Below are positions 57,369 to 63,378 of a DNA stretch of 64,000 nucleotides, piece after piece (the stretch's first letter is position 1; every line of letters starts with the position of its first letter). Both the position numbers and the translations under genes were made by a program. The notes beneath the pieces are model-generated. The model was not told where the DNA came from and made no database searches. It was given only the letters and a program-made list of their open reading frames with translations. Source of the DNA: Gemmatimonadota bacterium. Lineage in GTDB: Bacteria > JBHIER01 > G020348925. The DNA lies in the NCBI GenBank assembly GCA_020348925.1, contig CP070758.1, forward strand, positions 2,082,030-2,146,029, written 5' to 3'.

Positions 57369-57468
57369 NNNNNNNNNNNNNNNNNNNNNNNNNNNNNNNN
57401 NNNNNNNNNNNNNNNNNNNNNNNNNNNNNNNNNNNNNNNNNNNNNNNNNNNNNNNNNNNNNNNNNNNN
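57369..57468. other. Assembly gap (100 N)
   Basis: Run of n. Confidence 1.
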
Positions 57469-58212
57469 ATCGATGGCGTACTTTTCCCAATCGGAGAGAG
57501 GGGTTTGAGGTGAAACGACGACGAGGACGGCAATCTCCTCGGGGATCGTGTTTCCGGCGCTCAAATCCACCTGGGTTAGGGTGTATTGCCGTTGAAGCGA
57601 CCCTGTGACGGTATTCAGATCCGTCGTCATTTCAGGTTCGTCGTGACCGGTTAAAAACCCCACCGTCATCAATTCCTCGCTGGTGATCCGCTTTACGGCG
57701 GCCGTCAAATCGTACTCCAACCCTTGCACGCTCTTAATAACCGGCATGACCTCGCTCTTATCCTCATAGAGCATGACGAGCCCCATGTACACCTGTTTGA
57801 TCTCGATCTTATCATTGGCCACGACGTTCACCTGGAGGGGAGGAATTCGGTAGCTCTGTGCTTCCCGCTCCAACTTCTCCTCGCTGCCGGGATCGATGAA
57901 CTCATACTGAAATTTCCCCTTGGAATAGGCCTTGTATTCGTCCAGTTGATCCCTCAGATAGCGGGACTGATTGTTGTACGGTGACGGAAGATCGTCACTG
58001 AAATACGCTTTGACCACCAGCTTGTCATCCAGGTTTCGGACTGTCTCTTTGCTGGCCTTCGACAGGGAAAAGAGATGTCCCTCAGTCAAATCGAGCCTCC
58101 GGAAGACGTTCAAGGAGAATAGATTGAGGATGACGACTATGCCTGCCACAAGCAGAAGCGTGGTCGCCGAATTGATGTCAAACTGTCCTCTGGATTTTGT
58201 CTTATCTTTCAT
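57469..58212 (-). CDS. GldG-like ABC transporter auxiliary component, 3'-truncated at the gap
   Basis: RLDLTEGHLFSLS, YEFIDP, LEYDLT, GFLTGHDE, LVVVSPQ. Confidence 0.85.
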
Positions 58213-58252
58213 TGCCTCTCACCACTTTGAAAATAATGTTATCCTTTACACG

Positions 58253-58966
58253 TTACGCCGATTTTCTACTGGCCAGAGTCCTCGTTGCCAGGAAGAGACC
58301 GAGGAATATGAGGGAGAGATAGTAGATGAGATCGCGGGAATCGATGACACCTCTGGCAATATTGGCGAAATGATTGTTAATGGATACATATTCGAGAATT
58401 GAGACCAGGCCACTGGGAACCAGCATGAGGATTTTATCCAGCATGAAAAGAGCAAAGATGATGGCCAGACTGATGATGAAGGCCACAATCTGGTTCTCCG
58501 TCATGCTTGAGATGTAGACACCAATGGCCAAGTACGAAGCTCCCATGAGAATCAGGCCGAGGTACCCACCCACAATGGAACCCCCATCCGCGTTGCCCAG
58601 TATCGAGATGGTCAGTGGATATGTGAACGTCAACAGGATGGCCGTCAGAAGCAGCACGAAGGCGGCAAGATATTTACCGAGGATGACCTCGCTGTCCCTG
58701 ATGGGCATGGTGACGAGGACCTCCAGGGTACCGGATCGCTTCTCCTCGGCGATGAGGCGCATGGTCATGGCCGGGACGAAGAGCGTCAGGAAGAAGGGGA
58801 CCCAGAATCCGAAGACGGAGCGCAAATCGGCCTGGTTTTGAAGAAACAGTGTGCTGCCGAAAAAGTATCCTGATAATAGCAGAAAAAGGGTGATGAAGAT
58901 GTAGGCAATGGGTGAGTTAAAATAGGATCTGACCTCTTTTTTGAATATAGAGTAGATATTGTTCAT
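58253..58966 (-). CDS. GldF-like ABC-2 permease
   Basis: KEVRSYFNSPIAY, TMRLIAEEKRSGTLEVL, ILGKYLA, TENQIVA, RGVIDSRD. Confidence 0.9.
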   Translation of the reverse strand: MNNIYSIFKKEVRSYFNSPIAYIFITLFLLLSGYFFGSTLFLQNQADLRSVFGFWVPFFLTLFVPAMTMRLIAEEKRSGTLEVLVTMPIRDSEVILGKYLAAFVLLLTAILLTFTYPLTISILGNADGGSIVGGYLGLILMGASYLAIGVYISSMTENQIVAFIISLAIIFALFMLDKILMLVPSGLVSILEYVSINNHFANIARGVIDSRDLIYYLSLIFLGLFLATRTLASRKSA

Positions 58967-58975
58967 TGTTCACTC

Positions 58976-59911
58976 TCACTCCGATTTTGTTAATTCGCGA
59001 AAGACGTTCTCCAAACTGACCTGTTCACGGTGCATTTCAAAGATTGTCCACCGTTTCTCAACGGCCAGGTGAAACAGGCTTTCTCTGATATCCGTGCCTC
59101 TTTGGGACTCCACAGCGTAGCGCCTCAGGTTGCCGGTCTCAACTCCCTTATCCTCCACCTTGGACACGTTTTCCAGATTGGCAAGAGCGGCCGGCACGTC
59201 ATCCTCTGGAGCCTTGAGCACGAGATGGACCAACTCCTGGCCCTGAAAGCTGCTCTGAAGTTCCTCGGGTGTCCCGTCGGCGACCAGTTTCCCCTGGTGG
59301 ATGATGACGACCCGGTCACAGGTGGCTTGAACCTCCGGGAGAATGTGGGTGGAGAGAATAACGGTCTTCTCTTTTCCCAGCTCCTTGATGAGGTTTCTGA
59401 TTTCGACGATCTGGTTGGGGTCAAGACCCACGGTCGGTTCATCGAGGACCAGGATCTCCGGATCATGAACCATGGCTCGGGCCAGTCCGACCCGCTGCCG
59501 GAATCCTTTGGACAACTCCCCGATGTCCTGATGGAGGACGGTGCCCACTCCGCACAGCTCGATGATGTTCTTGAGACGTTGGGTGCGCTCTGCCGGAGGT
59601 ATGCCCCTCAATTCAGCGATAAAATAAAGATAGTCGACCGTATTCATGTCGTGGTAGAGAGGATTATCCTCGGGCATGTAGCCGAGCATGCGCCGGATCT
59701 CGAGGGAATGATCGAAGACGTTCATATCGCCCACCTCCACGGTGCCTGATGTCGGAGGCATGTAGCAGGTGATGATCTTCATGGTCGTCGTTTTGCCGGC
59801 GGCATTGGGGCCGAGAAATCCCAGAATTTCACCCGCCTTTACCTCGAAGGTGATGTCATCCACGGCCCTCAAAGATCCGTAGTGTTTCGATAAATTGGTA
59901 ATAGTAATCAT
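58976..59911 (-). CDS. GldA-like ABC transporter ATP-binding protein
   Basis: GPNAAGKTT, LSKGFRQRVGLA, LDEPTVGLDPNQ, STHIL. Confidence 0.92.
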   Translation of the reverse strand: MITITNLSKHYGSLRAVDDITFEVKAGEILGFLGPNAAGKTTTMKIITCYMPPTSGTVEVGDMNVFDHSLEIRRMLGYMPEDNPLYHDMNTVDYLYFIAELRGIPPAERTQRLKNIIELCGVGTVLHQDIGELSKGFRQRVGLARAMVHDPEILVLDEPTVGLDPNQIVEIRNLIKELGKEKTVILSTHILPEVQATCDRVVIIHQGKLVADGTPEELQSSFQGQELVHLVLKAPEDDVPAALANLENVSKVEDKGVETGNLRRYAVESQRGTDIRESLFHLAVEKRWTIFEMHREQVSLENVFRELTKSE

Positions 59912-60082
59912 CTTTCCGTTCCTGTAGCTTTATTTGTAATAGTTATCAACCTTCTCTTAACGTTTCTAACGTATACATTTTTCATATCCGTTCCCGTGCC
60001 ATGTATGAGCTGTGTTGTCCCTCAGTAGTATTCCAAAATAATAGTAGTGTTTAAAGACTCCGTTTCCAAAAAATGGTTCCAA

Positions 60083-60110
60083 AATATACAAAAAAATTCC
60101 ACGGAGTCAA
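60083..60110 (-). promoter_or_regulatory. Sigma70-type promoter for the ABC operon
   Basis: Minus strand TTGACT-16 bp-TATATT. Confidence 0.5.
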
Positions 60111-60635
60111 GGGAAAACCGGTCCGCGAGGCGGAGGAAGGCGGTAGAAAAGTAACATTATGTGTGTATTGAGGATAAGATCGGGAGAAGGCGGAATGAGA
60201 AAAAATGTGAAATCGCGACGGCACAGAATCCGTGGCTCTCGTCTCAAAAGGTCGGCTTGAGCCAGCATGTCATTGCCAGCAGTACCAAACGAAATGTTAG
60301 AAGCCGCTTCTGACAGGTTGTTACAGACTCAGGACCATCACCAGATTTCTCCACGAAGTTTGCCTCGGACTTGTCCCGAGGGTGCGGTCTCACCCCAACT
60401 TCTCAAGCGGTCCTTGCATGAGAATTCCAAGGCGAAGCTTTCTTCTACGACATGAAGTTGCTTCATTCTACCATGCATCGCACGGCCCTCCTCGCTATGA
60501 CGAGATGAATGCAGGACCATCTTGTTTCGAACGCGTCGAGCGTCGTGGTGGTGAAGCGGTCATCTCCTGGACACCTGGGGTATGGGGAACGAGATGTTGC
60601 GCTCCGGAAGATGTGGACCATCGTATTTTTAAATC

Positions 60636-60665
60636 TTGCATGAAACAAACGGTTTTTCGTATATT
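60636..60665 (+). promoter_or_regulatory. Sigma70-type promoter for the histone gene
   Basis: TTGCAT-18 bp-TATATT about 50 nt upstream of the ATG at 60715. Confidence 0.45.
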
Positions 60666-60714
60666 AAGAAACGGTGCTTGTGTTATGAAGGCTTCAAATC
60701 AAAGGAGGGCTATT

Positions 60715-60927
60715 ATGAACGAAGCGCAGGGAGGGGAGATTCTGGTTGTTGTCTCCAAGCTGAAAGGATATATTCGTTCAGCGTCGGGGATGAACACTTC
60801 GGCGAACGTCGTCCCGGTCTTATCCGACATAATCCGCCGACTGTGTGACCAGGCCATAGAGAGAGCGAATATGGCGGGCCGCAAAACCGTCATGGACAGG
60901 GATTTCACATCGGACGAGGTATCGTAG
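60715..60927 (+). CDS. Bacterial histone-fold protein (Bd0055/HBb-like), 70 aa
   Basis: MNEAQGGEILVVVSKLKGYIRSASGMNTSANVVPVLSDIIRRLCDQAIERANMAGRKTVMDRDFTSDEVS: LVVxSK...MNTS...GRKTVMxRD pattern; RBS AAAGGAGG. Confidence 0.88.
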   Translation: MNEAQGGEILVVVSKLKGYIRSASGMNTSANVVPVLSDIIRRLCDQAIERANMAGRKTVMDRDFTSDEVS

Positions 60928-61058
60928 CGAGCTTTTGCCGGATTGTATTCGCCTCAGCGATCGGACAGAATCAAGTGGAGGCTGCCTTGTGTTTCGGGCA
61001 GCTTCTTTCTTTTATGATGACACAATCATTGTGTGGATGTTGTACTGTAGAACGACGC

Positions 61059-61139
61059 GCCGGCCCTCGAACGGAGACAGATCCGTTGAGCCCATAAGGG
61101 GGTGCACCTGGGTGTCCGTTCAAACCGCGACAGGCTGGC
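61059..61139 (+). promoter_or_regulatory. Candidate multi-stem cis-regulatory RNA in the TonB-receptor leader
   Basis: Closing stem GCCGGCC/GGCTGGC encloses three hairpins; alternative pairing is possible. Confidence 0.35.
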
Positions 61140-61165
61140 TGAGAATCAATGAGGGGGAAAAAGGT

Positions 61166-63278
61166 ATGGTGTTCCTAAGTGCAAACATGTTGCGCAGGCT
61201 TGTTCGTATCATCACGGTCCTTGTGGTCCGCATGACGCCCTTGAATGCTCATGAAATGAAGGATGCGGGTACCATCGAAGGGAAGGTCACAGACAGCAAG
61301 AGCAAAATACCGCTGGAAGGCGCTACGGTTCGCATTCTCGGAACGGAGCGTGCCACGACATCGGACAGGAGTGGGTATTTCGAGATTCGCAATATCACAC
61401 CTGGTATGTACACTGTGGAGATATATGCGCCCGGCTACGAGATCATACTGGAACGAGAGGTACGAGTTTCCTCCGAAAAGATTTTTCTTTTGAATATCGA
61501 GCTGGAAAAAGAGTACATCTATACGCTGGATGAGATCGTCGTTACGGCAACCCGTATGAGGGAGAAGGTCAAAAATATAGAGGGGAGTGTTTCGGTCATA
61601 CACAAGGAAACGATAGAGACGATGCCGACGGTGCACCTGGTGGACATTATTGACGTCTCTCCTGGATTTCAAACGTATAGCGCCGACGGGAACAGTATGA
61701 GCCCGGGTGTCAACGTCCGGGGCTTCACCGGCGGGGGAATGGCGGAGTATCTTCTCGTCATGGTTGATGGGGTACCGATCAATGACATGGAGACAGGTCT
61801 GGTCAACTGGAATCTTGTGCCTGCGGGAAAAATCGAAAGAATTGAGATCCTCCGAGGCCCATCGTCGGCTCTTTACGGTGACGCAGCCTTGGGCGGGGTC
61901 ATCAATATTTTGACTGATGAGAGACGAGGCCGAAGGGTCACCGAGTTTTCTATAGAGGGCGGCAGTTACGGTGAATACGGCGGCAGGCTCCATTTGGCTC
62001 GGACATCAGAACATGCTGCGTACGAGATGTATGCATCGCAGTTACGACGGGACGGCTGGCGGGACCGTAGTGACTGGCGAGGTGAAAACATGACCGGTAA
62101 GGTGCGATTGGCCATTGGCAAAGACTGGAAGTTGTCTCTCTCTTCCCTCAACCAGCGCATTCGCAGCCAGACACCAGGGGCTCTTACTCCGGCTCAACTT
62201 CAGGAAGACAGAAATCAATCCGTGTTGGATCTTGATCGAGAAGATCAGCGCAGGCATCTCCTTTTTCTCAATGTCGATCGAGAGCATTTCCGGAGAGGCA
62301 GAGTCGAGGCCAACCTCTACTTTCAATACAAGGATACGGATATATACCGGACGCTGTTTTTCGAGACGAAGGAACAATCCAAGGAGACGTACCATGTCCG
62401 GGCGAGCACCCAGTATAGTACATCCCTCTCATGGAAGGGGATCACGCATCAACTCGTATGTGGCGCCGAAGTGGAATGGGGGAGGATGCACAGCAGGTAC
62501 TTCGATCTCCTCTCCGCCGACCGGTTTTCTGAAACGCCTTCGACAAAGGGCCTCGGAGTGAGGAGGAAAGCGGCCTGGTATCTTCAGGGGAAATTTTTCC
62601 CGGTGGAACACGTGAGCGCCACATTGGGATTGAGATGGGATGGGATATACGATGATTATGAAGACGAGCTCCGCAACAATTCATCCCTCACATCGGACAA
62701 GTCCGCTCTGAGCACGAAGCTTGGCCTCAATTGGAAACCGGATGAGTACGGCCACCTGTATGCGAACCTGGGACGGGCATTCAAGGCGCCCACAATCGAA
62801 CAACTCTTCGATCAAAGGCCATTTTACCATGAGTATTTAGGGACTGTTTTCATTTCAAATGCTGCCCTGGAAGCACAGAGTGGGATAAATTATGAGATCG
62901 GATTAAGGCGGAGTTTCGGCCCTTTGATGGAGACAGGTCTCTCGTTGTACCAGATGGACATGGAGGATGAGATCGAGTTCGATATGGGCACTCTTCAATA
63001 CGTCAATATAGGGAAGAGTCGACACCGAGGTTTTGAAGGGGAGATAAGGATCCAACCCTTTTCAAGCGCAACGGGTTTTGTCAGTTATACATATTCGGAT
63101 GCCCAGTACAGAACTGGAGGGAACACGGGCAATCAAATCAACAACATACCCAACCATCAGATGACGGTAGGTCTCCTTTACACGAGTGATGTGGGCTTCA
63201 AATCCGGAATCCTCATCCACTCGGTGAAGGACCAATATATGGATGCGGAAAACGAATATCCGCTCGCCGATTACACCA
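61166..63278 (+). CDS. TonB-dependent receptor with an N-terminal carboxypeptidase-regulatory-like domain; 3'-truncated at the gap
   Basis: GTIEGKVTD...PLEGATV; LDEIVVTATR; LVMVDGVPIN; IERIEILRGPSSALYG..ALGGVINI; RAFKAPT; NYEIG. Confidence 0.92.
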
Positions 63279-63378
63279 NNNNNNNNNNNNNNNNNNNNNN
63301 NNNNNNNNNNNNNNNNNNNNNNNNNNNNNNNNNNNNNNNNNNNNNNNNNNNNNNNNNNNNNNNNNNNNNNNNNNNNNN
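63279..63378. other. Assembly gap (100 N)
   Basis: Run of n. Confidence 1.

Follow-up and report, generated by a model that had tools for sequence, protein, structure and literature searches.

What does a 70-codon reading frame encode near the end of a genomic stretch of 64,000 nucleotides, and does it carry histone-based chromatin into a new bacterial lineage? The stretch (hereafter the window) covers positions 2,082,030 to 2,146,029 of the forward strand of contig CP070758.1 from a Gemmatimonadota bacterium (NCBI GenBank assembly GCA_020348925.1; GTDB lineage Bacteria, JBHIER01). The frame begins with ATG at position 60715 of the window, ends with the stop codon TAG at 60925-60927 (+ strand) and gives a product of 70 aa, MNEAQGGEILVVVSKLKGYIRSASGMNTSANVVPVLSDIIRRLCDQAIERANMAGRKTVMDRDFTSDEVS. 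In an initial annotation, made from the DNA alone, this product had been assigned to the Bd0055/HBb histones. Its coordinates, ATG and TAG were confirmed, and all of the motifs pointed out at that time (LVVVSK, MNTS, GRKTVMDRD and the tail TSDEVS) were found in the product. In this study, we found that the 70-aa protein is a genuine HBb/Bd0055-type bacterial histone, an assignment supported by sequence, predicted fold and a predicted handshake dimer, and that the taxonomic extension of the family is real but modest.

Family identity, predicted fold and dimer

A phmmer search against all PDB chains placed HBb first (8cmp_A, E 4.7e-12; 8fvx_A, E 5.9e-12; query residues 7-67), followed by HLp (9qt0, 6.9e-5), HTkC (9f2c, 7.2e-3) and then archaeal histones. 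The same order was obtained with a profile of 35 family members, which reached E-values of 6.9e-21 for HBb (8cmp), 5.4e-11 for HLp and 6.8e-8 for HTkC. S14-K15, R56-K57-T58 and D63 were invariant across the 35-sequence alignment, and both the RKTxxxD and the S-K motifs were present. The bacterial dimer category of alpha3-truncated histones has been defined through sequence clustering with HBb (Schwab et al. 2024, PMC11390915); the protein clusters with HBb, its best PDB match. Histones of the HBb type are also treated by Hu et al. 2024 (PMC11317129) and Hocher et al. 2023 (PMC10627809), and HLp in a paper of its own (PMC12701072). Two further histone classes were considered and rejected. A pseudodimeric DUF1931 histone was dismissed, as PF09123 had no match to the protein at E <= 1 and none in the whole genome, and the product is a single 70-aa fold. 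A nucleosomal histone of archaeal or eukaryotic type was dismissed on the basis of PF00808 and NF043032 scores below their cut-offs and an alpha3 of three residues.

The AlphaFold2 (AF2) monomer built on a 68-sequence alignment had a predicted local distance difference test (pLDDT) score of 88.2, with alpha1 at residues 13-24, alpha2 at 32-53 and a 3-residue alpha3 at 61-63. Foldseek ranks 1-5 of this model were all HBb chains, followed by HLp, HTkC, archaeal and eukaryotic histones, and the superposition on 8fvx was close (TMq 0.83, TMt 0.91, root-mean-square deviation 1.2 A, 63 columns, 48% identity). Both the truncated alpha3 (3-4 residues) and the shortened alpha2 typical of the dimer category were seen in the predicted model. 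The homodimer prediction reached ipSAE values of 0.67, 0.67 and 0.69 (best of three controls, 0.00), with a partner pLDDT of at least 79 and a run-to-run contact agreement of at least 98%. In calibration, the mark set for this tool was reached by 20 of 30 proteins solved as one-chain pairs but by just 1 of 23 whose solved form was a single chain. Contacts with the lowest error joined L1 (26-29) of one chain to L2 (57-60) of the other, together with alpha2-alpha1 contacts, and these predicted contacts are those of a histone handshake. Among the checks that the initial annotation had asked for, AlphaFold with Foldseek gave a histone-fold match and the predicted handshake dimer, and its Bd0055/HBb call was borne out by PDB homology, Foldseek fold and predicted dimer.

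For comparison at the residue level, HBb positions were mapped through the phmmer alignment (query = HBb + 5), with the residue list taken from Hu et al. 2024 (PMC11317129):

DNA contacts HBb S9, K10, K12, N22, S24, K52, T53 and R57, here S14, K15, K17, N27, S29, K57, T58 and R62: identical
DNA contact HBb K16, here R21: conservative
DNA contact HBb T8, here V13: changed
RD clamp HBb R51-D58, here R56-D63: kept
Auxiliary clamp partner HBb D49, here A54: lost
Hydrophobic dimer core HBb V11, L31, I35, L38 and I59, here L16, L36, I40, L43 and F64: kept or conservative

Eight of the ten DNA-contact residues of HBb were identical, one was conservative and one was changed. HBb D49 takes part in the RD-clamp salt bridges (PMC11317129).

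Several observations weighed against reading the protein as a DNA-packaging histone of the HBb type. The family is missed by curated models: Pfam PF00808 gave 17.3 bits against a cut-off of 21.4 and NCBIfam archaea_histone NF043032 gave 22.1 against 50, both below threshold. Our first AF2 monomer, based on 35 near-identical sequences, had a pLDDT of 66 and spurious strands; Foldseek returned 0 PDB matches at E <= 0.001 for it, and VIA-align in wide mode no Z >= 5 among 48,161 chains. This model was discarded as poor, and the more diverse 68-sequence alignment mended the prediction. The homodimer prediction may have succeeded because the model remembers HBb dimers; since such dimers have already been solved, the success should be taken as likeness, not as proof of binding. 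The changes to V13 and A54 point in the same adverse direction, as does the charge of the whole protein (net charge 0, pI 6.1), which lies at the low end of the family (median +1, pI 7.9). Low net charge as an oddity of this protein was nevertheless rejected, because the fold core carried +4, equal to the family median (79 sequences). Finally, four HU/IHF (PF00216) genes were present in the host genome (C1:1649065, 2367024, 458623 and 3339117) and four in the only other genome of its phylum (hereafter the sister genome), a rich complement of nucleoid proteins next to the two histones; the main chromatin protein is therefore not necessarily the histone.

Paralogues, host genome and spread of the family

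The host genome is one 5.04-Mb scaffold (96.3% complete) with exactly two histone copies, the second of which (C1:2952622-2952819) was 80% identical to the window copy and lay 0.8 Mb away. It also had at least 150 C-terminal sorting domains of the type IX secretion system (T9SS; 150 scored of 268 candidates, all above cut-off) and one SprA, and the closest named relatives of its Lon were from KSB1 and Calditrichota (61-64% identity). The host had initially been suspected to be like members of the Fibrobacteres-Chlorobi-Bacteroidetes (FCB) group, and this inference holds because of the T9SS domains, SprA and the Lon relatives. At least 150 sorting-domain proteins in 5.04 Mb amount to a very large secreted repertoire.

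In a collection of 199,900 species, the GTDB phylum of the host comprised two genomes of one family and two genera, with two histone matches each. The sister genome was 87% complete and 7% contaminated. Its full copy lay between an ACT-domain gene and DnaE-like fragments. Its second copy (L085:329-535, - strand, contig C354), beside unrelated small genes, lacked the N-terminal EILVVVSKLKGY (LVVVSKLK) even though the contig extends further in that direction; degeneration of the copy, recombination or an error of assembly may account for the loss. The paralogue of the window copy was located between an SH3-domain protein and signal peptidase I. Unlike the window copy, this paralogue was followed on the same strand (L002:1741-2343, + strand), about 40 bp on, by the signal peptidase I gene (Peptidase_S26). 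Nothing was shared when gene contexts were compared among the histone copies of the host and sister genomes, and orthology of the copies was not settled by synteny because of this lack of a common context.

Phylogenetic analysis was based on 79 rows and 66 columns, comprising 76 of the best 80 genome loci, the two host copies and the full sister copy; excluded were L013, L033, L072 and L077 (motif search misses), L085 (partial) and L003 (noise). The three histones of the host phylum formed one clade (95/95) that was placed weakly (87/87) beside anammox Planctomycetota, and most deep forks were open. The two host copies paired in the protein tree (98/75, not starred), and over 45 shared residues the two sister copies agreed at 41, versus 34-37 with the host copies. 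Thus, each genome seems to hold its own pair, which seems to have arisen through repeated duplication or gene conversion; which of the two was not settled by dS (0.98 between copy B and the sister copy, 1.88 between copies A and B), which was near saturation. Purifying selection on the histone is very strong: dN/dS was 0.069 in the comparison with the paralogue and 0.071 in that with the sister-genome copy, at a nearly saturated dS of about 1.9. The anammox bacterium Candidatus Subterrananammoxibius californiae had two near-identical histone loci on different contigs (L005 and L006), and paired copies therefore occur outside the host phylum as well.

As for the termini, an acidic N-terminal extension was the rule in the family, and both ends of the host protein were acidic: it had an extension of 7 residues and the tail TSDEVS, in line with the short extension and acidic tail initially described. 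We surveyed the tails of 119 of the 120 best-listed proteins (P0096, with a variant motif, was dropped). Sixty of them finished one residue past RDF, and 11 had a tail with at least two acidic residues or an SDE motif, including seven of the eight best matches (P0001-P0006 and P0008). The acidic tails read TSDEVS, KSDEM, MSDETE, ISDEI, VSTTDEEN and VSTTGEDE. These acidic-tailed relatives had Ala before GRKT, where most family members have Asp or Glu. What sets the clade apart (an acidic tail at the C-terminus, Ala at the position of HBb D49 and copies in pairs) amounts to small variations on a known theme. It could be imagined that the histones are a fixed, phylum-wide two-gene trait shaped by repeated duplication or concerted evolution, that the acidic, Ser/Thr-rich tail (TSDEVS, KSDEM, VSTTDEEN) serves to regulate DNA binding or to dock partner proteins, and that homo- and heterodimers give distinct chromatin states. 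We regard this as an unlikely combination, although, if true, such homo- and heterodimer states would amount to a primitive bacterial histone-variant system.

The family itself was abundant. Almost all candidate proteins (562 of 564) matched at E <= 1e-3, and clustering at 50% identity gave 511 clusters at E <= 1e-3, a figure that fell to 225 when E <= 1e-10 was required. At least 577 places out of 598 pattern hits were confirmed in species genomes, and 437 of 596 pattern stretches in metagenome contigs, of which 80 were kept; the best metagenome match (L095, 79% identity) had an acidic tail and lay on a 1,238-base contig with no adjoining genes. The genomes of the best 80 loci included ones labeled as Bdellovibrionota, Planctomycetota, Myxococcota, Nitrospirota, Thermodesulfobacteriota, Pseudomonadota, Gemmatimonadota, Eisenbacteria and Latescibacterota. 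Ten of 201 sampled genomes from the phylum of the Latescibacterota-labeled genome had a match at E <= 1e-8; a match was present in three of 59 unrelated bacterial genomes. Many of the top representative hits (P0241, P0242, P0244 and P0257) were doublets with two HBb-type folds per chain of 120-270 aa, and are single-chain pseudodimers of the bacterial dimer type; in P0244, a Cys-rich, zinc-finger-like N-terminal region preceded the doublet.

Hymenobacter is a genus of Bacteroidota, and its species Hymenobacter marinus has a histone that is presumably of the dimer type. In the alignment legend of the HLp paper (PMC12701072), this protein stands between HBb and chlamydial histones. In the excerpts of PMC11390915 and PMC11317129 used here, the host phylum is not among the six phyla named for such histones, and the main text of Schwab et al. 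(PMC11390915) contains no mention of Bacteroidota, Latescibacter-, Gemmatimonad-, KSB1, Nitrospir- or Desulfobacter-. Among the literature matches listed, there was no work combining histone terms with the names of FCB phyla. The extension to a new lineage that had been proposed at the outset stood only in part: the host phylum is indeed an addition to the six named in those excerpts, but the family is already present in genomes labeled as Latescibacterota, Eisenbacteria, Gemmatimonadota, Nitrospirota and Thermodesulfobacteriota, and the step is thus small and taxonomic, not conceptual. The novelty claim is weak.

The 70-codon gene and its neighborhood

The local features on which the choice of start codon depends were as follows:

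60382..60714, + strand: upstream part of a 181-aa open reading frame (ORF), judged to be non-coding (5' leader and intergenic DNA), with no likeness to the paralogues and blank in Pfam and Rfam
60636..60665, + strand: weak candidate -35/-10 pair (TTGCAT, 18 nt, TATATT), read by eye
60701..60708, + strand: Shine-Dalgarno sequence AAAGGAGG, with 6 nt between it and the start codon; AAGGAGGG invariant in three copies
60715..60927, + strand: coding sequence of the 70-aa HBb/Bd0055-type histone (bacterial dimer, alpha3-truncated), stop included
60977..61016, + strand: terminator-like hairpin (60977-61006) and T-run, TTCTTTTATG, with 11 pairs, 6 of them G-C, and a loop of 8

The 70-codon frame is the 3' end of a GTG-started ORF of 181 aa (60382-60927, + strand). 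It has its own perfect Shine-Dalgarno sequence 6 nt 5' of ATG 60715, as the initial annotation had noted in calling the ribosome-binding site strong and the longer frame misleading. The latter view was upheld when the DNA of the window copy was aligned with that of its paralogue in the host genome and that of the sister-genome copy: likeness started at AAGGAGGG and continued through the coding sequence, and the sequences upstream were unrelated. In all 35 aligned homologues, no more than a few residues lay between the start and the conserved core, residues 1-111 of the 181-aa ORF had no match in a Pfam search, and an Rfam E-value scan of 59900-61200 gave no match. Because likeness begins at the ribosome-binding site, homologues start at the core and Pfam is blank upstream, the 70-aa product is the gene and the 181-aa ORF an artefact.

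The promoter-like motif that had been reported upstream fared less well. The sigma-70 scan flagged no site on the + strand directly 5' of the histone gene, and its sole + strand site lay about 670 nt upstream (60015-60042). TTGCAT (60636-60641), the first half of the pair read by eye, agrees with the -35 consensus hexamer at only three of six positions; neither it nor TATATT (60660-60665) was conserved upstream of the paralogues in the three-copy alignment. The terminator-like hairpin was placed between the histone stop and the ATG of the next gene at 61166. It is only suggestive, because the terminator scan found one site and 1.6 +/- 1.5 were expected in shuffles; as a candidate terminator, it suggests that the histone gene may be monocistronic.

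The gene lies on a 5.8-kb segment flanked by runs of 100 N (57369-57468 and 63279-63378), and its neighbors were those initially described, a divergent GldAFG-like operon (57469-59911, - strand) and a TonB receptor (61166, + strand):

57469-58212, - strand: GldG-like ABC transporter gene, truncated by the N-run
58253-58966, - strand: GldF-like ABC transporter gene
58976-59911, - strand: GldA-like ABC transporter gene, divergent from the histone gene
61166..63278, + strand: TonB-dependent receptor with an N-terminal CarboxypepD_reg domain, truncated by the N-run (PF00593 1.8e-40, PF07715 7.6e-25, PF13620 1.2e-16)

The GldA/F/G-like genes scored 357.6 bits with TIGR03522, 199.4 with TIGR03518 and 111.2 with TIGR03521, each under the NCBIfam equivalog cut-off. 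A gap of 803 bp (59912-60714) separates the gldA-like gene from the histone gene; it had no Rfam match and no conserved ORF, and on its minus strand TTGACT, 16 nt and TATATT (60110-60083; 10 of 12 matches) make up a strong promoter-like site. A search for RNA sequencing runs over 59950-61150 listed none. GC content was unremarkable, at 0.54 in the histone gene, 0.51 in the segment and 0.50 in the window.

Two alternatives concern the gene and the segment themselves. The true product might be the 181-aa protein that would start at GTG 60382, in which case the histone fold would form its C-terminal domain: an open frame does run from that codon, and the representative library contains longer proteins with a C-terminal HBb-like domain. 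We give this almost no credence, as the three aligned copies have nothing in common 5' of AAGGAGGG, every one of the 35 homologues begins near the conserved core, Pfam is blank for residues 1-111, and the Shine-Dalgarno spacing is correct for ATG 60715. An equally remote idea is that the 5.8-kb segment was mis-binned from another organism, such as a planctomycete, and that the histone is foreign to the host. The segment does connect to its neighbors solely via 100-N gaps, and the tree places the anammox Planctomycetota closest among outside sequences, with weak support (87/87). On the other hand, a second histone copy lies 0.8 Mb away on the same scaffold, the sole other genome of the phylum has the same histone clade (95/95), the GldAFG-like genes and the CarboxypepD_reg TonB receptor suit a T9SS-bearing genome, and the segment and the window differ little in GC content.

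Proposed role and comparison with known histones

The product is very probably a nucleoid-associated protein of small size that belongs to the bacterial dimer class of HBb/Bd0055. By analogy with HBb, its most likely role would be that of a DNA-bending homodimer, or of a heterodimer with the paralogue, beside HU/IHF. Two chains would pair head-to-tail through their long alpha2 helices in the handshake, either as a homodimer or possibly as a heterodimer with the 80%-identical paralogue (G000:C1:2952622-2952819), and the L1 loop of each chain would be set against the L2 loop of its partner. Such a dimer would grip the DNA backbone in the minor groove with no sequence specificity, using a surface made of the L1-L2 pairs (N27, T28, S29, K57, T58 and R62) together with S14, K15, K17 and R21 from the opening turn of alpha1. 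The DNA would be bent, and hence compacted, in a manner similar to that of an HU dimer, with the protein working beside the products of the four HU/IHF genes. Homology, fold, the predicted dimer, the kept contact residues and purifying selection are what the present analysis shows, whereas DNA binding, bending and a chromatin-wide role would follow by extension from studies of HBb.

Two other readings accept the histone and question what it does. It might be a face-to-face histone of the HLp/HTkC type, forming a stable tetramer that wraps about 60 bp instead of bending DNA as a dimer. HLp (9qt0) was indeed the next-best solved relative (E 6.9e-5; profile 5.4e-11; Foldseek TMt 0.95), and its tetramer interface includes R49, S52, N53 and R55 (PMC12701072), of which R49 is kept as Arg50 and R55 as R56. 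However, S52 and N53 are replaced by Met53 and Ala54, and the hydrogen-bond network of the tetramer is therefore incomplete. Face-to-face histones are recognized by joint conservation of HLp R49, N53 and R55, and it is N53 that is missing here. Moreover, the E-values for HBb were 7-10 orders better than those for HLp, Foldseek identity was 48-50% to HBb versus 37-38% to HLp, and bacterial dimers are defined partly by the loss of tetramer-interface residues (Schwab et al. 2024, PMC11390915). Judged from these residues, the protein appears to fit the bacterial dimer category of alpha3-truncated histones, not the face-to-face type, which we consider very unlikely. Somewhat less improbable, though still unlikely, is a real HBb-type histone that is minor or condition-specific, with HU/IHF doing the bulk of the packaging. 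The four PF00216 genes per genome in both host and sister, the net charge of 0 with both ends acidic, and the synteny not kept between the two genomes of the phylum would agree with such a protein, and histone-fold proteins are not necessarily all global organizers (Schwab et al., PMC11390915). Against this, both genomes keep the gene (two matches each), the gene is under very strong purifying selection and has a perfect, conserved Shine-Dalgarno sequence, and HBb is essential and abundant even though HU and IHF are present beside it (PMC10627809, PMC11390915, PMC11317129).

Bacterial histones were recognized as working chromatin proteins only in 2023-2025, and two have been characterized, HBb and HLp; each well-supported distant member helps to chart the spread of a patchy family. 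With this histone, a candidate phylum of FCB type that bears a T9SS is added, both of whose known genomes have the gene, and natural variants become available for testing what tunes DNA binding, namely an acidic tail, a lost D49 partner and paired paralogues. The current picture is unchanged, the family being already abundant in public genomes of many phyla.

Among known systems, the closest is HBb/Bd0055 of Bdellovibrio bacteriovorus (PDB 8CMP, 8FVX, 8FW7, 9EZZ and 9F0E), with about 48-50% identity over about 60 residues. The two have in common a short alpha2, a 3-residue alpha3 and a handshake homodimer (predicted here), S-K at the start of alpha1, MNTS in L1, RKTVM-RD in L2/alpha3 and the RD clamp, and HU/IHF genes accompany the histone in both hosts. 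The differences are that HBb has been solved, whereas the host protein is known here from sequence and predicted models; that the host is an FCB-type T9SS bacterium of a two-genome phylum, not a predator; and that its protein has a 7-residue N-terminal extension, a net charge of 0, an acidic tail (TSDEVS) common only to its closest relatives, Ala for D49, Val for T8 and two paralogues per genome. HLp of Leptospira perolatii and HTkC of Thermococcus kodakarensis (PDB 9QT0-2 and 9F2C) share the alpha3-truncated fold, the RD clamp and the S-K and K of alpha1, but their identity is lower (32-38%), their E-values are 7-10 orders weaker than those of HBb, and HLp S52/N53 are Met/Ala in the host protein. 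Archaeal nucleosomal histones (HMfB) share the histone fold, the RKT motif, the RD clamp and the L1-L2 DNA-binding surface; in contrast with them, the host protein has a truncated alpha3 and an alpha2 about one turn shorter, and no hypernucleosome interface would be expected.

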